In this document: in pieces, positions 3,425-62,861 of the stretch
Numbering within the stretch: position 1 is the stretch's first letter
How the letters are laid out: each line of letters starts with the position of its first letter
From: Parcubacteria group bacterium
Lineage (GTDB): Bacteria > Patescibacteriota > Minisyncoccia > Moranbacterales > UBA2206
Direction of reading: 5' to 3'
DNA: 64,000 bases
Assembly (NCBI GenBank): GCA_041645535.1
Contig: JBAZPT010000002.1
Coordinates: forward strand, 77,605 to 141,604
The notes under the pieces: model-generated
Told to the model about the DNA's origin: nothing
Seen by the model: only the letters and a program-made list of their open reading frames with translations
Database searches by the model: none
Made by a program: the position numbers and the translations under genes

Positions 3425-4396
3425 TTATTTTTTTCTCCTTCTCGCGTGGAACGCTTTGTGGACTTCTTTGAGCTGTTGGTTGGTGATGTGGGTGTAAATT
3501 TGGGTGGTAGTGATAGAAGAATGGCCAAGCATAGCCTGGACACTGCGGATATCGGCGCCATTGATTAATAAATCCGTAGCAAATGAATGGCGCAAAGTAT
3601 GCGGATGGACATCTTTAATGATTCCGGCCTTGGCGGCATAAAATTTTACCATTCTTTGGACACTGCGGGGAGTTAATCTTAGAGTTTTATCCTGGTTTTT
3701 TTCTAAAGCCGAGCTTTCCCCGATCTTAAAGCTCGGTTTTTTAGTTTCAAATTTCTTTAGCGCCTTCACATCCCGCACAAATAAGGCAGGGTCAATGTCG
3801 GCGCGCTTGTCGAGATAGCGCTCAAGCGCTTGCTTGGCGCTATCAGAAACAAAAACCAGCCTGATTTTGTCGCCCTTGCCCCGCACAGTGAATTCCTGAT
3901 TTTTGAGATCCAGCTTATCGCGGTTGATATTGATAAGCTCGGAAACACGCAGGCCCGAAGAGAAAAGCAGTTCCAGCATTGCCCGATCCCGGAGGATCTT
4001 GAAGCTATTGCCGCTAGCCGCCTCCAAAATACGCTCGACTTCCTCCGCCTCCAAAAATTCCACTTCCTTGCGGGACACCTTGCCCGCTTCCACTTTCTCC
4101 GCCGACAAAGTTTTGATATCTTTCTTGGCCAGATATTTCAGGAAGCTGCGGAGTGCGATAATATAATAATTTTGCGTTATTTTCTTGAGTTTTTGCCCTT
4201 TTTTGTCCTCATAGCGGTTGAGATAAACCCGAAAACCGCGCACCGTTTCCTCCGTGATGTTTTTAGGATCGGTTACTCTAGACCATTCTAAAAACCGATC
4301 CAGATAGTGGCCGTAGTTTTCAATCGTCTTCCCGGCTTTGCCCTTTTCAATTTCCAAATATTCCAGAAATTGGTTTTTAAAATCCTTTAGTTGCAT
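3425..4396 (-). CDS. tyrosine site-specific recombinase, XerC/XerD family
   Basis: C-terminal catalytic signature HTLRHSFATDLLINGADIRSVQAMLGHSSITTTQIYTH. I prefer the internal ATG at 4396 (MQLKDFKNQFLEYL), which gives a typical length of 323 aa. Confidence 0.9.
   Translation of the reverse strand: MQLKDFKNQFLEYLEIEKGKAGKTIENYGHYLDRFLEWSRVTDPKNITEETVRGFRVYLNRYEDKKGQKLKKITQNYYIIALRSFLKYLAKKDIKTLSAEKVEAGKVSRKEVEFLEAEEVERILEAASGNSFKILRDRAMLELLFSSGLRVSELININRDKLDLKNQEFTVRGKGDKIRLVFVSDSAKQALERYLDKRADIDPALFVRDVKALKKFETKKPSFKIGESSALEKNQDKTLRLTPRSVQRMVKFYAAKAGIIKDVHPHTLRHSFATDLLINGADIRSVQAMLGHSSITTTQIYTHITNQQLKEVHKAFHARRRKK
3705..3740. repeat. intragenic hairpin AAAGCCGAGCTTT / AAAGCTCGGTTTT inside the recombinase gene
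   Basis: 13-bp arms with one G:T, and a 10-nt loop. It shares the AGCCGAGCT core with the palindrome at 42668-42710. Confidence 0.6.
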
Positions 4397-28454: not shown

Positions 28455-28937
28455 ATGCCAAAACAAAAATTAATGAAAGAAAATTCCGAAAATATCACTA
28501 ACCATCTGGCTGTTTTTAGGGGCAAAACCATCAGGAAAACAATCTTTCAAAAAGAATGGTGGTTTTCAGTTGTTGATGTCATTCAGGTGCTTATTAACCA
28601 ACAAGATGGTCTAAAAGCTAGAAAATACTGGAACAAACTAGCGCAACGGCTACGAGAGGAGGGAAGTGAAGTGGTGACAAATTGTCACCAGTTGAAATTA
28701 CTGGCTCCTGATGGCAAAATGCGAGAAACAGACTGTGCTAACACGGAAGATATGTTCAGAATTGTGCAATCGATCCCGTCGCCCAAGGCCGAACCACTAA
28801 AACGCTGGCTGGCCAAAGTTGGCTATGAAAGAATTTACCCCATTGGATATGAAATTATCCAACGGGGTGAAGAAATTGAAAATCCGGAATTACCATGGCT
28901 AAATAATTTGACTTTTGCATATATTGGAATTACCTAA
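28455..28937 (+). CDS. Bro-N/antirepressor-like DNA-binding protein, apparently 3'-truncated
   Basis: FRGKTIRKTIFQKEWWFSVVDVIQVL...PKAEPLKRWLAKVGYERI. The frame runs into the GIY-YIG gene. Confidence 0.6.
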   Translation: MPKQKLMKENSENITNHLAVFRGKTIRKTIFQKEWWFSVVDVIQVLINQQDGLKARKYWNKLAQRLREEGSEVVTNCHQLKLLAPDGKMRETDCANTEDMFRIVQSIPSPKAEPLKRWLAKVGYERIYPIGYEIIQRGEEIENPELPWLNNLTFAYIGIT

Positions 28938-28947
28938 CGGGGTAAAA

Positions 28948-29217
28948 ATGAATACTATGTTTTATATTTATATTCTGCAAAGCCTGAAGGATGAAAAATT
29001 TTACGTAGGCTACACGAATGATCTAACAAATAGAAAGAAGAAACACGACAAAGGATTGGTCAATTCCACAAAAAACAGAAGACCTTTGCAACTCGTATAT
29101 TATGAAGCCTGTATTGATCAGCAAGACGCAACCCATAGAGAAAAATATTTGAAAACAGCCTGGGGCAAAAGGTATATAAAAAGCAGGTTGAAAAATCATT
29201 TAGTACTGAAAATTTAA
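28948..29217 (+). CDS. GIY-YIG nuclease-domain protein (stand-alone, ~90 aa)
   Basis: FYIYILQSLKDEKFYVGYTNDLTNRKKKH...REKYLK. The ATG is preceded by TAACGGGGTAAAA. Confidence 0.8.
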   Translation: MNTMFYIYILQSLKDEKFYVGYTNDLTNRKKKHDKGLVNSTKNRRPLQLVYYEACIDQQDATHREKYLKTAWGKRYIKSRLKNHLVLKI

Positions 29218-54457: not shown

Positions 54458-55330
54458 ATGGCAAAAATACTTAATGTTTTCAACAAAATAAACTCTTTGC
54501 GAGAGAGATATTATGAGGCGTCCATCGGAAAAGAAGCCCTTATTAAACTTATCTCTGAAACCGAGGTGGCCGAACAAGTCTATAACTCAAATGCTATAGA
54601 AAACAGCACGCTAACTCTTGAAGAAACGGAAAAAATACTTTTGCAGATTGATCTGGATCGATACATAAATGAACGGGAGATTTTTGAAGCCAAAAACTTG
54701 GCGCGGGTTGTGTCATATATTGACAAGCGGGCCAAAGAAAAAGAACTTACTCTCGAGGTAGTTTTGTTTTTGCATAAAATGTTGATTTCCAACATCCGTG
54801 ATGAAATTGCCGGAAGATTCAGAAGGGATAATGAATTTGTGCGCGTGGGAAATTATATCGCTCCCAACCCTAAAGAAGTAACCGGGCTTTTGGAAAAAAT
54901 GCTGGTGGAATATAATGCCGCGAGCCATGAAAATATCATTAAGCGGATAGCCAGGTTGCATTTGACGTTTGAACACATCCACCCGTTTTGCGATGGCAAT
55001 GGACGCATCGGCCGGGTGATTAATAATTATTTATTGATCCGGGAAGGTTTCGTTCCCATAAACATAAAGTTTATTGACAGAAAAAAATATTACGAAGCGT
55101 TCAGGGAATTTGACGGGAAAGGCGCGACTGCAATCATGGAAGAAATGGTGGGCAAGGCTCTGACTAATAGTTATTATAAAAGACTGGCATACCTCGAAGG
55201 CAAAAAAATCATTACGCTAGCTGAACATGCGAAAGCAAACAAGCTCTCACATTCAAATCTGATCAATAAGGCCAACCGGCAGACAATCGAGGCTTTTTTG
55301 GAAAAAGGCGTCTGGAAAATCGGGGTATAA
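54458..55330 (+). CDS. fic: Fic/DOC-family protein (AMPylase-type), class II with N-terminal inhibitory motif
   Basis: Active site HPFCDGNGRIGR. N-terminal SNAIEN matches the [ST]xxxE[GN] inhibitory-helix motif. Confidence 0.85.
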   Translation: MAKILNVFNKINSLRERYYEASIGKEALIKLISETEVAEQVYNSNAIENSTLTLEETEKILLQIDLDRYINEREIFEAKNLARVVSYIDKRAKEKELTLEVVLFLHKMLISNIRDEIAGRFRRDNEFVRVGNYIAPNPKEVTGLLEKMLVEYNAASHENIIKRIARLHLTFEHIHPFCDGNGRIGRVINNYLLIREGFVPINIKFIDRKKYYEAFREFDGKGATAIMEEMVGKALTNSYYKRLAYLEGKKIITLAEHAKANKLSHSNLINKANRQTIEAFLEKGVWKIGV

Positions 55331-55376
55331 AAGTTATTATAAATAGGCGGTGCTACGCAGCAAGTCGAGTAACAAT

Positions 55377-55691
55377 ATGGACAAAAAAATCATCAAACAC
55401 GCTTTTCTTTTGGCGTTGGGCGAGGGGGTCTACATAACTCTAGTCGCGCTCCTGATGTTTGGTATCCAGAAACTGTTCGGCGCGAAGCCCGATCCCGTTA
55501 TCGTTGCTCCAATCGCTTTCCTTCTGCTCTTCGTCATTTCCGCTGCAATTTCGGGAGCTTTGATTTTGGGGAGACCCGTTATGCTGTATCTGGACGGCAA
55601 GAAAAAAGACGCGCTCCAGCTTTTTGGATTCATATTGCTCTGGTTGATTTTATTTTTGGCCGTAGCGTTTTTGATTGTGGCTAGTAAGTAA
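55377..55691 (+). CDS. small three-TM membrane protein (copy 1)
   Basis: MDKKIIKHAFLLALGEGVYITLVALLMFG.... About 260 nt are nearly identical to 58975-59228. Confidence 0.6.
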   Translation: MDKKIIKHAFLLALGEGVYITLVALLMFGIQKLFGAKPDPVIVAPIAFLLLFVISAAISGALILGRPVMLYLDGKKKDALQLFGFILLWLILFLAVAFLIVASK

Positions 55692-55794
55692 TATGCTACG
55701 TAATAAAATTAAATGAGCAGAAAAAAAAGGAAGAATATTTTCAGTCTAAAGCTTGTTTATATTACTATTGCTAATATAAACAAAAGAGGCCAAA

Positions 55795-56325
55795 ATGTTT
55801 ATATTGAATGAAATTCTTGATGAGGATTTTAAGTATGCCCGGGGAAAAAGTAAATTTATGATAAAAACTAAAAAAGAAATCGTTATATTTCAGTCAAAAA
55901 CCGGAGCGATTGAGCTTAGGGGTGATTTTAGCCGTGAAACGATTTGGGCCAATCTTGATCAGATTGCAGGCTTGTTTGACCGCGATAAATCAGTGATTTC
56001 AAGACATATAAAGAACATATTTAACGAAGGCGAGTTAAGGCGAAATTCAGTTGTTGCATTTTTTGCAACAACTGCTGCTGACGGAAAAACATATAAAGTC
56101 GAGTATTTTAATCTGGATGTAATTCTTTCAGTCGGGTATCGAGTGAATTCTAAGAAAGCAACCATATTTCGCCAATGGGCTACCAAAATTTTGCGCGAGC
56201 ATATCACCAAGGGATACACCGTTAACCGCAAGCAAATCGCGAAAAACTACGACGCCTTTATGAAGGCCGTCACGGATGTGCAAACGCTTTTGCGTTTCTT
56301 TGGTTTTTACGCAAGACAAAATTAA
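55795..56325 (+). pseudogene. RhuM-family protein, C-terminally truncated
   Basis: IVIFQSKTGAIELRGD...VEYFNLDVILSVGYRVNSKKATIFRQWATKILREHITKGY. 176 aa, against 353 aa for the full-length homolog at 57005. Confidence 0.6.
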
Positions 56326-56459
56326 AAACAATGAGAAATATCAATCCAAACGCGCTTACAGCTATCACGCTTTTGATTGCTGAGAGCAATCCAAAGAAGA
56401 AAGATTTAATGACTGGTCTGGTGGTAAAAATGCTAAAATAAATTCTAGGGCTGGGGATA

Positions 56460-56570
56460 GAGAGGCTCGCGATGGCGGGCGGGGCTAGTAAGTAATATGC
56501 TATGCCATGACGAAGTTTTAACGAAGTCTGGTTACGTAGCAGGTTACGTAGCAAAATCAGAAAATTGTGG
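56460..56570. repeat. solo copy (R1) of the GC-rich end + displaced gene tail + GGTTACGTAGCA repeats
   Basis: GAGAGGCTCGCGATGGCGGGCGGGG joined to CTAGTAAGTAATATGCT...GGTTACGTAGCAGGTTACGTAGCAAAAT. Matches 59637-59661 plus 59699-59784. Confidence 0.75.
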
Positions 56571-56641
56571 AAAGAAAAATAGAAAGTAGTCATCAAGCGC
56601 GTCCGCGGGGGAGTTTTAATTAAAGATTGGAAAAAATAAAA

Positions 56642-56687
56642 TTATCCACAGGGCGGGGATTGACGAAGAGCATGTTAGTGATATAAT
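56642..56687 (+). promoter_or_regulatory. perfect DnaA box next to an extended -10 promoter
   Basis: TTATCCACA (56642-56650), TTGACG (56660-56665), 16 nt, TGATATAAT (56679-56687). Confidence 0.5.
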
Positions 56688-56714
56688 ATCACTATAAATA
56701 ACTTTAAAAAATTT

Positions 56715-56990
56715 ATGGTTAAGGAGATTGTGATAAGTTCACTGAATAAAGATTTCGAAAGTATCAAAAAAGTCGATAAAACTGGCATAGAATATTGGGA
56801 AGCTCGGGAGCTGATGCCTCTTTTGGGTTATCCAAATTGGCAAAAAGCAGAAGATGTTATCGCCAGGGCTGCTAGGGCTTGTATCAATAGCGGCCAGGCT
56901 GTGGATAACCATTTTAACCGGTCGGTGAAAATGGTCGATATCGGCTCAAATACGGTGCGCGAAGTCAGGGATTGGAAAAGTATTTTATAA
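56715..56990 (+). pseudogene. DinD/Bro-N-like protein fragment (N-terminal ~90 aa only)
   Basis: IEYWEARELMPLLGYPNWQKAEDVIARAARACINSGQAVDNHF. It ends abruptly before the RhuM gene. Confidence 0.5.
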
Positions 56991-57004
56991 TTTAAAAAAT
57001 AATT

Positions 57005-58066
57005 ATGAAAAAAAAGAATCAAGTTATTCCAAATAACAGCTTTACCGAGTTTTTACTTTATACTACTCCAAATGGGAAGGTGAAAGTTGAGATTTTTTTG
57101 CGCGATGAAAATATCTGGTTGACTCAAGATAAGATAGCACTTCTATTTGGGGTTCAAAGGCCAGCTATTACCAAGCATTTGAAAAATATATTTGAAAGCG
57201 GAGAATTAGACGAAAAAGTGGTTAGTTCCATTTTGGAACATACCACTATCCATGGAGCTATAGCTGAAAAAACACAAAATCAGTCTGTAAAATTTTATAA
57301 TCTCGATGCTATTCTTTCTGTCGGCTATCGGGTCAATAGCGCGCAAGCCACGCAGTTTCGTATTTGGGCGACCGAAAGATTAAAAGAATATATTATCAAG
57401 GGCTTTACGATGGATGACGAACGATTAAAAAATCCCAATACAATTTTCGGCAAGGATTATTTTGAAGAACAACTTGCGAGAATTAGGGATATTCGTTCCA
57501 GCGAAAGACGAATGTATCAAAAGATAACGGATATTTACGCGCAGTGCAGCGCGGATTATTCTTCAAATAGCGATATTACCAAAGATTTTTTTGCGACAGT
57601 CCAAAATAAGCTCCATTTCGCCATTACCGGTAAAACTGCCGCGGAAATAATATCCGAAAGAGTGAGTAGCGCAAAACCAAATATGGGACTGACGGTTTGG
57701 AAAAATTCTCCAAAAGGCGCGATTCGGGAAACTGATGTGGTGATTGCGAAAAACTATTTGAATGAAAACGAGTTGGATGAATTAAACAGGATAGTTGAAA
57801 TGTATTTGGTGTTCGCGGAAAGTCAGGCGCGCAGAGGCAAAATAATGCATATGAAAGACTGGGTTAAAAAATTAGACAGTTTTTTGCGATTTAGCGAGAA
57901 TACGATTTTGCAAGATTTGGGAAAAGTGAGTCATGAAGTTGCCGAGTCATTGGCATTGGAAGAATATGAAAAATATCGCGTGGAGCAAAACAAAAATTAC
58001 ATTTCCGATTTTGACAGAGAGGTGAAGAGGATTTTGAAGATGGGAAAAAAGAAAGGGAAGAAATAG
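57005..58066 (+). CDS. RhuM-family protein (full length)
   Basis: 353 aa; VKFYNLDAILSVGYRVNSAQATQFRIWATERLKEYIIKGF. Confidence 0.8.
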   Translation: MKKKNQVIPNNSFTEFLLYTTPNGKVKVEIFLRDENIWLTQDKIALLFGVQRPAITKHLKNIFESGELDEKVVSSILEHTTIHGAIAEKTQNQSVKFYNLDAILSVGYRVNSAQATQFRIWATERLKEYIIKGFTMDDERLKNPNTIFGKDYFEEQLARIRDIRSSERRMYQKITDIYAQCSADYSSNSDITKDFFATVQNKLHFAITGKTAAEIISERVSSAKPNMGLTVWKNSPKGAIRETDVVIAKNYLNENELDELNRIVEMYLVFAESQARRGKIMHMKDWVKKLDSFLRFSENTILQDLGKVSHEVAESLALEEYEKYRVEQNKNYISDFDREVKRILKMGKKKGKK

Positions 58067-58119
58067 TATATTTTTCCAAACAGGCTAATATTGCTTGCTA
58101 CCCGAAGCATAATAGAAAG

Positions 58120-58144
58120 AAACCTCTTTTTGAGAGGTTTTTGC
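58120..58144 (+). terminator. rho-independent terminator
   Basis: AAACCTCT-ttttg-AGAGGTTT followed by TTG. Confidence 0.6.
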
Positions 58145-58243
58145 GTTTGCTGGCTTGAATAATTGCTTATTTAGTGATAATATAAGGATATTAAGCTGGA
58201 AACTCGAAGTATGTAATTTAGTATGTAATAAAAAAGTAAATTT

Positions 58244-58861
58244 ATGATAACGCCGTCCGCCATTATTCTCATTGTTGTCAATTTTATTCCTCTAGTCGGA
58301 GTCTTGTTTTTTGGCTGGAGCCTATTTGCAATTTTATTCCTCTATTGGCTAGAAAATTGGGTAGTCGGTCTTTTCAATGTTTTCCGTATGGCAAAGGCCC
58401 AAGGGACAACAGTAAGGACTAATACGGAGATTAACAATGTGCTAGCCAACAAATACAGCAAAGTCACACTCATCCCATTTTTCATCCTGCACTATGGAAT
58501 GTTCACGCTTATTCACGGGGTCTTTGTTTTTGCTGTATTCGGACCGCCGGATATTCCTTTTTGGAGCATGATAACTGCCGGAGCGTCACTTTTTGTGAGT
58601 CACACGGTTTCATACTTTTCCAATTTCATTGGCAAGGGCGAATACAAAAATATTTCACCCGACGCTCTTTTCGGCCAGCCCTATAAAAGAATAGTAATTA
58701 TGCATCTCACGATTCTGGCCGGCGGTTTTCTGGTGAAAGGTCTCGGGGCGCCAATCATGGCTTTGGTAGTCATGATAATTCTTAAAACCGCCATTGACCT
58801 CTTTTCCCATTTTAAAGAACACGAAAAGTTTCAGTGGAATGTTGAAATCGGGCAGATCTAA
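58244..58861 (+). CDS. polytopic membrane protein (205 aa), unknown function
   Basis: ORF with about 6 TM helices. Confidence 0.55.
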   Translation: MITPSAIILIVVNFIPLVGVLFFGWSLFAILFLYWLENWVVGLFNVFRMAKAQGTTVRTNTEINNVLANKYSKVTLIPFFILHYGMFTLIHGVFVFAVFGPPDIPFWSMITAGASLFVSHTVSYFSNFIGKGEYKNISPDALFGQPYKRIVIMHLTILAGGFLVKGLGAPIMALVVMIILKTAIDLFSHFKEHEKFQWNVEIGQI

Positions 58862-58974
58862 AATTCAGGCACTACTTTTCAGCTCTCATCGGGCTGTTTT
58901 TTTATTTAATTCCATTCCCTCGATTTTTTGATTTTTAGCCGGTTTGGGCGTAGAATTAAGGCAAGATCAACAAT

Positions 58975-59289
58975 ATGGACAAAAAAATCATCAAACACGC
59001 TTTTCTTTTGGCGCTGGGCGAGGGGGTCTACATAACTCTAGTCGCGCTCCTGATGTTTGGTATCCAGAAACTGTTCGGCGCGAAGCCTGATCCCGTCATC
59101 ATTGCTCCGATCGCTTTCCTTCTGCTCTTCGTCATTTCCGCTGCAATTTCGGGAGCTTTGATTTTGGGGAGACCCGTGATGCTGTATCTGGACGGCAAGA
59201 AAAAAGACGCGCTCCAGCTTTTTGGATTTATTTTGATGTGGTTAGTATTATTCTTAGCTATAGCATTTTTAATCATTATTAGATATTAA
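58975..59289 (+). CDS. small three-TM membrane protein (copy 2) with recoded 3' end
   Basis: Nearly identical to copy 1 up to 59228. From there the protein is conserved (LMWLVLFLAIAFLIIIRY versus LLWLILFLAVAFLIVASK) but the nucleotides diverge strongly. Confidence 0.6.
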   Translation: MDKKIIKHAFLLALGEGVYITLVALLMFGIQKLFGAKPDPVIIAPIAFLLLFVISAAISGALILGRPVMLYLDGKKKDALQLFGFILMWLVLFLAIAFLIIIRY

Positions 59290-59661
59290 GCAATGATAAT
59301 AAATTTTGGCCTGCCCGCCCGCCTCGCCTGAGCGAGCCCAAAAAATATGTATTATACTTACGTTTTAAAAAGTAAAGTAGATAATGATTTGTATGTTGGT
59401 TTTACGAACGACTTGAAATTAAGATTTAAACAACATAATAATGGCAAGGTTGAATCTACGAAAAGACGGAAGCCATTTGATATAATATATTATGAAGCTT
59501 GCTTGGATAAACAAGATGCCATTAAAAGAGAGAAGTATTTTAAAACAGGATTTGGGCGAAGATTTCTTAATAACAGGTTGGAAATGTATTTTAAATAAGG
59601 CTCAGGCTCGCGACCTGTCCGACACTCGAGTTAAATGAGAGGCTCGCGATGGCGGGCGGGG
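59229..59661 (+). mobile_element. GIY-YIG cassette bounded by GC-rich imperfect inverted repeats, inserted near the 3' end of the small membrane gene
   Basis: Left repeat CTGCCCGCCCGCCTCGCCTGAGCGAGCC (59311-59338); right repeat GAGAGGCTCGCGATGGCGGGCGGGG (59637-59661). The displaced original gene tail lies at 59662-59709. Confidence 0.55.
59347..59598 (+). CDS. GIY-YIG nuclease-domain protein (83 aa)
   Basis: YYTYVLKSKVDNDLYVGFTNDLKLRFKQHN...REKYFK. Paralog of 28948-29217. Confidence 0.8.
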   Translation: MYYTYVLKSKVDNDLYVGFTNDLKLRFKQHNNGKVESTKRRKPFDIIYYEACLDKQDAIKREKYFKTGFGRRFLNNRLEMYFK

Positions 59662-59784
59662 TTGATATTGTTCCTGATCATCGCGTTTATCATTGTGGCT
59701 AGTAAGTAATATGCTTTGCCATGACGGAGTTTTAACGAAGTCTGGTTACGTAGCAAGTTACGTAGCAAAATTAGGAAATTGTGG
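59637..59784. repeat. repeat R2 (GC-rich end, displaced gene tail, GGTTACGTAGCA tandem)
   Basis: See R1. It contains an extra 37 nt (59662-59698) encoding the original ...LILFLIIAFIIVASK tail. Confidence 0.75.
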
Positions 59785-59920
59785 CGGGAAAAGCAGAGAG
59801 TTAAGGTAATGTGCATCAAAGGCGGGTTGTAAATCCGCGATTATCGGAGTAAAAAGTAAAGTTATAAAAAACAACCACCTAGTTTAAATAGGTGATTGTT
59901 TCCGAGCTATGAAGTTTAAA

Positions 59921-60103
59921 CTATGTTAAATCTTCATAATCTGCTCCTTTAGCATTGTTTCTTGTCCACTCAATTGAAGTTTTTGCTCCTTGTTTTGAGT
60001 CGTAAGATTCGCTGCTTTTGGCTACTGTCTTACCGTTTCTATCGGATTTTAATATCCAATAGTAACATCCGGCGACATCCTTCGAAAGTTGGTATCTGGC
60101 CAT
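59921..60103 (-). CDS. YegP/DUF1508-family small protein
   Basis: MARYQLSKDVAGCYYWILKSDRNGKTVAKSSESYDSKQGAKTSIEWTRNNA. Confidence 0.6.
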   Translation of the reverse strand: MARYQLSKDVAGCYYWILKSDRNGKTVAKSSESYDSKQGAKTSIEWTRNNAKGADYEDLT

Positions 60104-60266
60104 AGCTTTGCTATTACGGCCTTATCCCTAGAATAAAGTCTGGTTGATTATCTGGCCTCTGGGGAACCAGAAAGGTACCTTCAATATACTATTTTAACAG
60201 GTCCTCAAAAAAAGTCAAGTTTTTCGTCGAAAATCACAAAAATTAAAATGGCTTAAATAAAGACAC

Positions 60267-60294
60267 TTGACAAGACTTTATAGTCATATATAAT
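60267..60294 (+). promoter_or_regulatory. sigma70 promoter giving a leaderless lexA-like mRNA
   Basis: TTGACA (60267-60272), 16 nt, TATAAT (60289-60294), with the ATG at 60302. Confidence 0.55.
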
Positions 60295-60301
60295 TAGGTT
60301 A

Positions 60302-60943
60302 ATGAGTAAATATCTTACATTAAAACAAAAAAAGGTACTGGAGCTAATTTATGATTCCATTTATTCTTCAGGTTTTTCACCCACACTTGCTGATCTTAAA
60401 GATGAATTAGGAGCTTCTTCAAATCAAACAGTTTTGAATTTTTTAGAAATATTAGAAAAAAAGGAGTGCATCAAAAAAATCGATAATAAAGCGAGGAGTA
60501 TTTCTATTACGCCATTTGGTTATAAGGAAATTGAAAAAGATCCATTGATAAAAATGGAAGGAACTAGCGCGGCTGGACCATATATCGAATCTTTTGCGGA
60601 TGTCTTTACTTTCCTGCCAATAAGCGGGCAGGTTTTAGAAAAAGAAAAAATAATAGAAGCTCAAGATAAAGTCTTTGTTATACAAATTAGCGGTGACTCT
60701 ATGATTAATGTAGGTATTAATGATGGAGACAAGCTACTTATCAAAAAATCTAAAGAATATAAGAGTGGAGATATTGTCCTTGCGAGGACGGATGATGGCA
60801 CGACAGTTAAACGTTTTGTTGCTGAAGGCGGAAAAAGATATTTACAGCCGGAAAATCCAGCTTACGAAAAAATGGTAATTATTCCCGGCGAAGTTGAATT
60901 TCAAGGCAAAGTAATTTTAAATCTTTCTAAAATAAATCAATAA
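60302..60943 (+). CDS. lexA: LexA-family repressor (wHTH + S24 self-cleaving peptidase)
   Basis: N-terminal LexA DNA-binding domain, an AAG cleavage-site candidate, Ser nucleophile GDSM, and Lys in TVKRF. Confidence 0.8.
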   Translation: MSKYLTLKQKKVLELIYDSIYSSGFSPTLADLKDELGASSNQTVLNFLEILEKKECIKKIDNKARSISITPFGYKEIEKDPLIKMEGTSAAGPYIESFADVFTFLPISGQVLEKEKIIEAQDKVFVIQISGDSMINVGINDGDKLLIKKSKEYKSGDIVLARTDDGTTVKRFVAEGGKRYLQPENPAYEKMVIIPGEVEFQGKVILNLSKINQ

Positions 60944-60944
60944 T

Positions 60945-62861
60945 ATGGCGGATCAAAAAAAGACCAGCGAAATCTTGGCAAAAATTTTTCATAATCCTGA
61001 TATGCAATTTGGACTCTCGGTTTTTGAAGGAATTGCTCCAGAGCAGGTTCTTAATCTTTCCGAAAAGGACGGAAAATATTATTTGGATTGTTTAAAACGG
61101 AAAAAGAATATACAAGCCAAGCCTGAAGAAATTGTGCGTCAACTTATGATTTATAAGCTGGTTAATTTTTATAAATACCCGCTTGATCGATTGGATGTCG
61201 AAGTGGATGTGCAATTCGGTCGAGAAATTGGATCCAAGAGAGCGGACATCGTTATCTATCGTGAAGATGGAAAAACTCCATATCTTATGGTTGAAGTGAA
61301 AAAACCTGATGTCAAAGATGGTCTTGGGCAACTCAAAAGCTACGCGAACGCAAACGGCGCGCCGATCCTCATTCTTACCGATGGAAAAGTGCAAAATAAT
61401 ATCTTGCGGACTGATCCGAATCTTTTTGAAGATCTGCCGGAAATTCCCAAATTTAATGAGACAGTTGATGATGTGCGGTCGAAAAAAATTACTTACGCCG
61501 ATTTGGATGAAATTCCGAATTTGAAACAGCTCGTTTATGAGTTGCAAGAAGTTGTTCTGACGCATAGCGGGGTAGATTCTTTTGATGAAATTTTCAAACT
61601 AATTTATGCCAAGCTTTTTGATGATATTGAAACTCCGCGAAATGACAATAGAAGATTTAGAGTTATTGCAGGAGCGACAAATAAGGAAAATTTAAATAAT
61701 ATTATCCGTCTATTTGAAGATGCGAAAGGACAATGGCGTGATGTTTTCAAACCGAAAGATGAAATAGAAATTCCGGAAAATGTGATTGTGCCAGCTGTTT
61801 CACTTTTGCAAAAGTATCGTCTTTTTGGGTCAAACTTGCAGGTAATTGATGATGCCTTTGAATATCTGATTAATCTGGATGCCAAAGGTGAAAAAGGACA
61901 ATACTTTACGCCGCGGCATGTAATAGACATGGCAGTCAAAATGTTAGCGCCTACTTCCAAGGATTATATTATTGATACGGCCGCCGGCAGCTGCGGATTT
62001 TTGCTGCATGCGATGCAATACGTTTGGGATAAAGAAATAAATAAGGAAAAATTTGAAGATGATTACAAATCTAAACAAAAAAACTACGCCGAGAAACATT
62101 TATTTGGGATTGATTTTGATCCGCGTTCGGTAAAAATTGGAAAAGCTATGATGCTTATCGCTGGTGATGGCAAAACTAATGTAACTTATGCTGATTCTTT
62201 GGACTCAGAAGTTTGGAATGAAGATGCAAAAGTTAAATTCAGGCCATTTTTACGACCACTTAAGGATAGCGAAGAAAACCGGCGCAATCAAGAAAAATTT
62301 TCCGAATTTAATTTTGATATTGTCCTAACCAACCCGCCTTTTGCCGGTGAGGTTAAGGGTGTAATGCTTAACAAATACGATCTGGGGTTTAAGTGGGACA
62401 AAGATTTTCAAAGAACATCTAAGCATCAAAATAAAGTTTCGCGCGATGTGCTTTTTATTGAGCGCAATCTGAATTTTCTGAAACCCGGCGGAAAAATGGC
62501 AATTGTTTTACCGCAAGGAGTTTTGAATAATACGCAGATGGAATATGTGAGAAAATTTATTTTGAATAAAGCTAGACTTTTGGCGGTTGTGGGACTGCAT
62601 GGAAACACATTTAAACCGCACACCGGAACAAAAACGTCAGTATTATTTTTGCAGAAGTGGGGGACTGATGAAAAAATTCCGAAAGACTATCCGATATTTA
62701 TGGCAGTGTCCAAAAAAGGCGGAAAGGATAATTCCGGAGATTATATCTACAAAAAAGACAGTGAGGGGAATGTGATGTTTGACGCCAGCGGGAAGAAAAT
62801 TATTGATCATGACTTAGATGAAATTGCAGAGGAATTCTTGAAGTTTACTAAAAATATTTAA
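60945..62861 (+). CDS. fusion of an HsdR-N-like PD-(D/E)xK domain with an N6-adenine DNA methyltransferase (HsdM-like)
   Basis: RADIVIYREDGKTPYLMVEVKKP, motif I IIDTAAGSCGFL, motif IV LTNPPFAG. It starts 1 nt after the lexA-like stop. Confidence 0.8.
   Translation: MADQKKTSEILAKIFHNPDMQFGLSVFEGIAPEQVLNLSEKDGKYYLDCLKRKKNIQAKPEEIVRQLMIYKLVNFYKYPLDRLDVEVDVQFGREIGSKRADIVIYREDGKTPYLMVEVKKPDVKDGLGQLKSYANANGAPILILTDGKVQNNILRTDPNLFEDLPEIPKFNETVDDVRSKKITYADLDEIPNLKQLVYELQEVVLTHSGVDSFDEIFKLIYAKLFDDIETPRNDNRRFRVIAGATNKENLNNIIRLFEDAKGQWRDVFKPKDEIEIPENVIVPAVSLLQKYRLFGSNLQVIDDAFEYLINLDAKGEKGQYFTPRHVIDMAVKMLAPTSKDYIIDTAAGSCGFLLHAMQYVWDKEINKEKFEDDYKSKQKNYAEKHLFGIDFDPRSVKIGKAMMLIAGDGKTNVTYADSLDSEVWNEDAKVKFRPFLRPLKDSEENRRNQEKFSEFNFDIVLTNPPFAGEVKGVMLNKYDLGFKWDKDFQRTSKHQNKVSRDVLFIERNLNFLKPGGKMAIVLPQGVLNNTQMEYVRKFILNKARLLAVVGLHGNTFKPHTGTKTSVLFLQKWGTDEKIPKDYPIFMAVSKKGGKDNSGDYIYKKDSEGNVMFDASGKKIIDHDLDEIAEEFLKFTKNI

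Follow-up and report, generated by a model that had tools for sequence, protein, structure and literature searches.

How can a gene be broken near its 3' end by a nuclease gene and still encode a protein of full length? The question is raised by one of two copies of a small membrane-protein gene in a 64,000-nt stretch of a Parcubacteria-group contig (JBAZPT010000002.1, positions 77,605 to 141,604), referred to below as the window. Copy 2 of this gene is followed by a GIY-YIG open reading frame (ORF) between GC-rich inverted repeats and then by a segment that resembles the original end of the gene. The reading that we favor, and consider rather probable, is that nucleotides 59227/59239-59661 form a horizontally mobile mini-cassette, which consists of a nuclease gene in the loop of a split palindrome, a spacer and a foreign gene end, with the displaced native tail left behind as an untranslated relic. 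The features on which this reading is based are as follows.

55377-55691, plus strand: copy 1, a paralogue of the membrane-protein gene with a native-type tail, unbroken at codon 89/90 (P0002)
58975-59289, plus strand: copy 2, a hybrid membrane-protein gene of 104 codons with a host body and a foreign end of 16-20 codons (exact match P0001)
59227-59289, plus strand: foreign, recoded tail, codons 85-104 plus stop, 19.7% G+C; near-exact match to contig L007 from codon 89 (59239)
59290-59309, plus strand: spacer of 20 nt from the new stop codon to the left arm; travels with the cassette, one mismatch to L007
59310-59339, plus strand: left arm of the split GC-rich palindrome, CCTGCCCGCCCGCCTCGCCTGAGCGAGCCC; its 22-mer also occurs in solo metagenome hairpins
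59347-59598, plus strand: GIY-YIG nuclease ORF, 83 aa, single domain (Pfam PF01541), 27.8% G+C
59599-59661, plus strand: right arm of the palindrome, GGCTCAGGCTCGCGA ... TGGCGGGCGGGG, with an internal 36-nt segment at 59614-59649
59662-59709, plus strand: native gene-tail relic of 48 nt, codons 90-104 plus stop, LILFLIIAFIIVASK, in frame and directly against the right arm

The products of both copies are exact matches to WC608_03705 and WC608_03730 of a Parcubacteria-group metagenome-assembled genome. The two genes, each 315 nt long and 3.6 kb apart, differ at 6 positions in nucleotides 1-252 (97.6% identity) and at 21 positions in nucleotides 253-315 (66.7%; Fisher p = 1.2e-11). This bears out an earlier note, made from the sequence of the window, in which the copies were described as nearly identical up to about 55630/59228 and divergent thereafter. 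The same note had remarked that copy 2 continues with almost the same residues in diverged, AT-richer codons, and this also holds: the encoded tails are LLWLILFLAVAFLIVASK in copy 1 and LMWLVLFLAIAFLIIIRY in copy 2, the latter still a hydrophobic helix, and the G+C content is 19.7% in the copy-2 tail, 49.6% in the remaining gene and 41% in the whole window. Among 109 homologues the IIIRY tail is unique to copy 2, and nearly all close homologues end in ...IVASK/R/Q. A homologue with the odd tail ...IVIYN (P0033) was considered as a further occupied allele and rejected, as there is no element at its locus.

The arms are imperfect inverted repeats which, when joined, are computed to form a single strong hairpin in DNA (-27 kcal/mol, z = -4.9), and this places the ORF in the loop of a split palindrome. 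What the earlier note had listed as a GIY-YIG ORF at 59311-59661 is the inverted-repeat-bounded unit, the ORF itself being confined to 59347-59598. The whole cassette amounts to 430 nt with this one ORF, and since it brings its own copy of the last 16-20 codons of the gene, the hybrid gene remains a full-length ORF. The 48-nt tail that follows at 59662-59709 is, as had been noted, collinear with the tail of copy 1; the two are similar rather than identical (38/48 nt). The relic shares 41/48 nt with the tail of an empty allele on contig L002 and 28/48 nt with the tail of copy 2. Counted from codon 89, the new tail in turn shares 49/51 nt with L007, 34/51 with copy 1 and 33/51 with L002. The 36-nt segment of the right arm lies between GGCTCGCGA repeats; because it is missing from L007 and present in a diverged form in L012, L007 has probably lost it by deletion between the repeats.

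The window junctions are reproduced in L006, an independent Logan assembly of another sequencing run, and analogous junctions are found in L007, for which reason a misassembly was rejected. An intron or ribozyme was rejected as well, since an Rfam search of 58800-59950 gave no relevant family and the non-coding parts measure only about 30-60 nt.

The 83-aa protein matches PF01541 over residues 1-70, nearly its whole length, with 69.6 bits (cut-off 22.6; E = 2.8e-19). Seven residues (Y3, Y5, G18, R26, H30, E50 and E62) do not vary among 34 relatives, and Y16 varies little (at least 90% conserved). The AlphaFold2 model has a predicted local distance difference test score (pLDDT) of 95.9, and its Foldseek matches include UPF0213 (1zg2), Slx1 (query-normalized TM-score, TMq, 0.67-0.68) and the catalytic domain of I-TevI. 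The closest solved proteins are the UPF0213 members BH0048 and EF2693, followed by the Slx1 nuclease domain and the I-TevI catalytic domain. The TIGR01453 model gives the protein 26 bits (cut-off 56), and in phage records only distant GIY-YIG genes of <43% identity were found. Judged by profile match and residue conservation, this is a conserved, intact gene for a predicted GIY-YIG nuclease.

The earlier note had proposed a search for empty and occupied alleles, and both were found. In a related genome (L002, with duplicates L001, L003 and L004) the orthologous locus lacks the element and has an intact native tail; its upstream DNA matches that of copy 2 and the gene bodies are 96% identical. 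The empty site, in copy 1 or L002, reads ...CTCTGG^TTGATTTTATT..., with the caret at the point of insertion. An occupied allele is found on L007, a contig from a different sample that encodes exactly the same GIY-YIG protein, the two ORFs differing by two synonymous substitutions and the stop codon. The identity between L007 and the window is 88.5% in nucleotides 1-252 of the gene body, 96.1% in the new tail from codon 89 and 98.5% in the spacer, left arm and ORF, while the DNA 3' of the relic is unrelated. In terms of mismatches, the gene body differs at 29/252 positions and the cassette at 7/375 (p = 5.6e-7), and the relic starts at the identical codon in both. These segment identities indicate that the recoded tail belongs to a horizontally moving unit that occupies the same position in diverged hosts.

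Related elements in other genes and genomes

To place the cassette among its relatives, we surveyed 80 genome loci, mostly from Patescibacteria, that encode nuclease relatives of 39-77% identity. At 41 of the 80 loci a tRNA gene on the same strand starts at most 130 nt past the nuclease stop codon, and for 32 of these the distance is at most 30 nt. The tRNA genes 3' of the nuclease relatives are intact and represent twelve tRNA types. Many of the tRNA-linked loci also contain a partial 5' copy of the same tRNA within 100 nt upstream of the ORF, its D-loop broken by a complete hairpin of the GC-rich family, as for example at L018, L020, L028, L043, L050 and L075. At 33/80 loci the ORF lies between exact direct repeats of 12 nt or more, for an estimated chance expectation of about 0.3% per locus. 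Together, the tRNA-linked loci and the bracketing repeats make partial duplication with an intact target a property of the family rather than a peculiarity of the window.

Protein genes are entered in more than one manner. Plain, precise insertions are found in AbrB/MazE-like genes at one hotspot (...KYGW/..., the slash marking the junction) in L009/L013, L213 and L216, none of them with a duplication, and L157 has a plain insertion in a GxxExxY gene, with a decayed nuclease ORF and again no duplication. Judging from the plain insertions at the GW/ hotspot, the arm-bounded unit is a discrete insertion. In other genes an end has been restored. The GT-like gene of L179 ends in ...PGRLFNTSIGQGISRDSVKDLVKFIKS and a stop codon, followed by 5 nt, the element and a relic that reads PGRMFSGAHGGGISKDSVKDVRKLIKTKFK to its stop, with 46/78 nt identical between new tail and relic. 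Similarly, the AbrB-like gene of L218 ends in ...KERQKVMVKKARGGFIIRDYRNK and a stop codon, followed by 4 nt, the element and the relic REKQKVTVKKVKGGLMIKDYYSKK with its stop; here 40/66 nt of new tail and relic are identical and the relic begins exactly at the W/ hotspot. The 5' end is the one restored in the glycosyltransferase gene of L027, where a 41-nt exact duplicate stands on either side of the element. At these three loci (L179, L218 and L027) the gene-end-restoring layout has arisen independently. Insertions in L034 and L208 are close to the gene start and have repeats of about 7-10 nt, and some relatives of the element are intergenic.

In all six restored cases the relic stands directly against one arm, and the restoring copy lies 4-36 nt from the other. 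The precision of this contact, and that of the plain insertions, indicates that the arm ends behave as real DNA ends. Duplications are absent at the AbrB-like insertions, about 7-10 nt long at L034 and L208, and 17-48 nt long at the restored genes, where they do not abut both ends. TGG precedes several of the junctions, and solo hairpins in other organisms follow no TGG rule. Because the arm ends are G-rich, the boundaries of the junctions are ambiguous at TGG, and in view of the deviating solo hairpins we do not claim TGG as a common target motif.

The arms also occur without a gene. In a metagenome scan with the 22-nt core of the left arm, 94 of 123 hits among the matches listed had the right arm within 80 nt and no ORF. 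These solo hairpins (L092-L211) are about 40 nt long and resemble repetitive extragenic palindromic (REP) sequences or miniature inverted-repeat transposable elements (MITEs), with flanks that vary and are often repeated themselves. They come from sediment and groundwater metagenomes and also from phage-like contigs; five viral contigs (L219-L223) contain solo hairpins only. Traits of insertion sequences or MITEs are thus present, namely arms that act as terminal inverted repeats, precise plain insertions and solo derivatives that lack the ORF. We tentatively suggest, at odds somewhat short of even, that the cassette and its relatives represent a new class of element, widespread in Patescibacteria, which consists of a GC-rich hairpin with a GIY-YIG nuclease of about 80 aa, enters tRNA and protein genes and rebuilds their 5' or 3' end during insertion by the joining of an arm and the use of the donor's neighboring gene copy.

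As an observation on L218 itself, two different small GIY-YIG genes (772-1026 and 1201-1548) are arranged in tandem around its one AbrB-like gene. A CCCTGTTAAAT-type motif stands before the upstream gene of this pair and before the relatives in L035, L054, L057, L064 and L069, suggesting yet another type of hairpin or target among the small GIY-YIG proteins.

Mechanism and competing explanations

How could such a unit have been acquired? The donor would have carried the element about 20 nt 3' of a homologous gene in an AT-rich lineage. Upon entry, a break at codon 89/90 would have opened the recipient gene for precise joining to one of the arms. Homologous recombination in the gene body would have resolved the other side and brought in the donor tail and the spacer, the whole amounting to a one-ended insertion. 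Later spread between alleles might proceed in a homing-like manner, with recombination in the gene body to the left and in the relic to the right. By analogy with the Ssn enzymes treated below, the substrate of the nuclease is probably its own palindrome in the form of a hairpin, extruded or single-stranded, with the cut at the boundary of the arm. The nuclease activity, its substrate and the one-ended joining step we infer, as we do nuclease-driven homing and an immunity of the recoded allele to re-cleavage.

Several observations weigh against this scheme. Copy 1, in the same genome, retains the native site CTCTGG^TTGATT unbroken and has not been invaded, although its conversion would be expected from an efficient site-specific homing nuclease. 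The protein stops after the catalytic domain, with no C-terminal DNA-binding region of the linker, zinc-finger or NUMOD/helix-turn-helix type, and in this it differs from I-TevI and the Seg endonucleases. The best-characterized small relatives of the nuclease, the Ssn enzymes, cut only single-stranded DNA beside hairpins (PMC11893778), and a scan of both strands of the window for the published Ssn-related motif (SRM), HGTCWY...RNCYNB, gave 0 matches. The insertions yield neither a consistent target motif nor a consistent target-site duplication, and just two occupied alleles of the membrane-protein gene were found. Finally, the first 24 nt of the window relic are only 17/24 (70.8%) identical to the empty allele, compared with 96% for the gene body, and are closer to the L007 relic (21/24), while the last 24 nt are identical to L002. 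Recombination on the right-hand side may therefore have taken place within the relic, part of which may also move along with the cassette.

A classical, efficient double-strand homing endonuclease with a long protein-read site is unlikely, since copy 1 keeps its native site and the protein is too small for a long one. The earlier note had envisaged a homing or integrating element that restores the gene it interrupts. With an empty allele in L002 and an occupied one in L007, a mobile cassette that carries a gene end is supported, and it is simple active homing that the uninvaded copy 1 and the missing DNA-binding domain count against.

The same two observations also favor the main rival, in which the nuclease is a passive hitchhiker or a domesticated Ssn-like enzyme that acts on hairpin repeats and might, for instance, control single-stranded DNA entering the cell. 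On this view it has no part in the insertion or in the duplication of the tail, and the cassette is moved only by homologous recombination of the ordinary kind once DNA has been taken up. ORF-less hairpins with the same arms are abundant, viral contigs included, and the Ssn enzyme of Neisseria modulates transformation rather than its own transposition (PMC11893778). General recombination alone, however, hardly accounts for the link to interrupted or duplicated gene ends and to tRNA genes (41/80 loci), nor for the exact contact between relic and arm end in all six restored cases and the precision of the plain insertions. We regard this rival as a serious contender, with roughly one chance in a few of being right. 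Less probable still is an origin in two steps, by which a plain insertion at codon 89/90 truncated the gene and the tail was rebuilt later through an unrelated duplication or recombination with a divergent allele. The imperfect terminal inverted repeats of the element are compatible with such a history, and unrestored insertions do exist at the hotspot that also holds a restored allele (L009, L213 and L216 versus L218). The new tail, on the other hand, is AT-rich like the ORF, travels with it between hosts at 96-98% identity and is only about 58-61% identical to the relic, and a non-gene spacer of 4-36 nt always separates the restoring copy from the arm, which fits the flank of a donor better than a local duplication. 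We think an origin of this kind improbable.

Two further explanations have very little in their favor. That the window contains two paralogues 3.6 kb apart whose 5' parts are 97.6% identical would fit ordinary paralogue divergence, or gene conversion that has homogenized the 5' 250 nt of old paralogues, with the GIY-YIG gene as an unrelated neighbor. Yet L007 has the same tail, spacer, arms and ORF on a gene body of 88.5% identity, a relic of the native type stands behind the element, and the orthologous locus in L002 is empty; the mosaic identity to L007 and the empty L002 led us to reject this explanation, which we hold to be very improbable. The layout of restored 3' end and relic, and the 17-nt exact repeat that flanks an insert beside copy 1, recall elements mobilized by an integrase or recombinase that duplicate an attachment (att) core and restore a 3' end in the manner of tRNA-targeting genomic islands. 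The 430-nt unit contains the GIY-YIG ORF only and neither integrase nor recombinase, and the new tail and relic, being only 58% identical, are not an att core. An element of this type was rejected on the gene content of the cassette, and of all the alternatives it is the one to which we give the least credence. The reading that we retain is thus that of a mobile mini-cassette which supplies the foreign end of copy 2.

The copy-1 locus and the second GIY-YIG gene

The window contains further sequences related to the cassette, both 3' of copy 1 and at a second GIY-YIG gene.

55681-55697, plus strand: end of the copy-1 gene, 17 nt, CTAGTAAGTAATATGCT, with an exact repeat at 56485-56501
56460-56501, plus strand: solo right-arm end of 25 nt, then a 17-nt relic of the copy-1 gene end; the arm part 56460-56484 equals 59637-59661
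28834-28871, plus strand: AT-richer hairpin, in frame within an upstream Bro-N ORF, with its right arm repeated at 28925-28946
28948-29217, plus strand: second GIY-YIG ORF, 51% identical to the cassette nuclease

The right-arm end 3' of copy 1, adjoining the 17-nt duplicate of the gene end, had been overlooked in the earlier note. Between the two 17-mers lie 787 nt (55698-56484), of which the last 25 are the solo arm and which include a truncated RhuM-family ORF (55795-56325); neither a left arm nor a nuclease gene was found in this stretch. The 105 nt after the repeat at 56485-56501 are 90% identical to the DNA 3' of the copy-2 relic. What is left at this locus resembles a second cassette of like layout, now degraded, with a different insertion point, GTGG^CTAG, and the 17-nt end of the copy-1 gene may represent its restoring copy.

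Whether the GIY-YIG gene at 28948 has a similar target duplication was a question of the earlier note, and none was found there; nor does this gene have GC-rich arms, only a different hairpin. The hairpin at 28834-28871 (TTTACCCCATTGGATA / TATCCAACGGGGTGAA) adds YPIGYEIIQRG to the Bro-N ORF, and the repeat of its right arm at 28925-28946 directly precedes the start codon of the second nuclease. The Bro-N ORF upstream of this gene appears truncated.

Downstream of both membrane-protein genes are pseudogenes of the 3' half of an AbrB/MazE-like gene, at 59779-59859 (LWREKQRVKVMCIKGGL, a stop, IRDYRSKK and a stop) and at 56565-56639 (LWKEK, a stop, KVVIKRVRGGVLIKDWKK and a stop), and the sequence recurs in L007 at 871-1047. 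The similarity of these pseudogenes to intact AbrB-like genes begins at GW/, the insertion point in L009, L213, L216 and L218. Beside the membrane-protein genes there is also an operator-like tandem motif, TACGTAGCA(A/G)GTTACGTAGCAAA, with a TACGTA palindrome, at 56533-56555 and 59747-59769; it is found in L002 at about 4318-4340 and in L005 at about 3963-3985, and an insertion of 33 nt relative to L002 immediately precedes it in the window copies. The region 54458-62861 as a whole is an island of toxin- and defense-type genes, which holds two RhuM-family ORFs as well as the following genes.

54458-55330: Fic gene
56715-56990: Bro-N/DinD-like fragment
58244-58861: DUF6498 gene
59921-60103, minus strand: DUF1508 gene
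60302-60943: LexA-like repressor gene
60945-62861: type I restriction-modification methylase-like gene

Comparison with known systems

The earlier note knew of no such behavior for small stand-alone GIY-YIG proteins, and our literature searches agree: small bacterial GIY-YIG genes at tRNA genes or with restoration of gene ends were not found described. Nor did we find a description of the combination seen here, in which a bacterium is the host, a nuclease with a single domain and about 80 aa lies in a split palindrome, either gene end is restored and the link to tRNA genes is strong. The Seg and Mob proteins of T-even phages are reportedly free-standing GIY-YIG homing endonucleases that spread by 'intronless homing'. 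Like the cassette nuclease they are said to be encoded beside their target and to spread with co-conversion of flanking markers, by which donor DNA takes the place of the adjoining recipient DNA; they reportedly differ in being 200-250 aa long, with DNA-binding domains and a double-strand cut, and in having neither gene-end duplications nor palindromic arms.

The arms invite comparison with bacterial palindromic repeats. In REP/REPIN sequences and their RAYT proteins, as compared in PMC11893778, a nuclease gene is likewise flanked by short palindromes that are its putative substrates, and many repeats are solo; RAYT is of the HUH/IS200 type and the cassette nuclease of the GIY-YIG type, and REP/RAYT are not known to rebuild the genes that they enter. 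Closer in architecture are the Ssn enzymes, site-specific, single-domain GIY-YIG nucleases that bind the NTS/SRM hairpin repeats on either side of their gene, where they cut only the adjacent single-stranded DNA (Chenal et al. 2025, PMC11893778). Common to both systems are a GIY-YIG domain that stands alone (about 85-95 aa), GC-rich hairpin-forming repeats on both sides and many repeats without a gene, an arrangement that the Ssn authors liken to an insertion sequence (PMC11893778). Each Ssn flank forms its own hairpin, whereas the cassette flanks pair with each other as one split palindrome. Interruption and rebuilding of genes, or a position at tRNA genes, are not reported for Ssn, and the cassette family shows both. 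With the SRM motif absent from the window and the likeness to Ssn (cd10448) being one of architecture, we refer to the cassette protein as Ssn-like and not as a member of Ssn. If our reading is correct, it would provide concrete selfish-element biology for Ssn-type nucleases, which the original authors only hypothesized, and compact pairs of hairpin and nuclease that could be tried as sequence- or structure-specific DNA tools.

The general design is known from fungal mitochondria. Mobile ORFs (mORFs) in the atp6, atp9, cox2 and nad3 genes of Glomus graft a foreign C-terminus onto the gene and leave the native C-terminus 3' of it (PMC3630166). The mORF gene hybrid of Allomyces macrogynus atp6 is described by Paquin et al. 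1994, as cited in PMC3630166, and duplications of the C-termini of atp6 and cob are located beside GIY-YIG/LAGLIDADG ORFs (PMC6279837). The cassette shares with these mORFs a host gene with an endonuclease ORF at its 3' end, a foreign and diverged in-frame C-terminal segment with the native relic 3' of it, a relic that is closer to relatives than the inserted copy is, and an inserted end inferred to come from another lineage. The DNA identity of the inserted copy is about 64-81% for the Glomus mORFs and 58-67% for the cassette. Presence/absence polymorphism at one site was found for the cassette, which is 98% identical between occupied alleles in comparison with 88.5% for the gene body.

Through such a process short foreign ends would be added to resident genes, with consequences for the annotation and phylogeny of Patescibacteria genomes. 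It would account for the presence of mobile DNA in the tRNA and single-copy genes of these tiny genomes without lethality, and would imply that elements can colonize the essential single-copy genes of minimal genomes and shuffle gene ends between lineages. The differences from mORFs are that these belong to organelles and the cassette to a bacterium (Parcubacteria), that the cassette nuclease is a single-domain protein of 83 aa with no DNA-binding modules, placed in a split GC-rich palindrome that is also found as solo hairpins, and that relatives of the cassette, unlike mORFs, restore 5' ends and tRNA genes as well. If this reading holds, the fungal-mitochondrial design, in which a selfish endonuclease gene delivers a substitute for the gene end and so lets the host gene survive, would exist in bacteria too, with a protein about as small as a nuclease can be.

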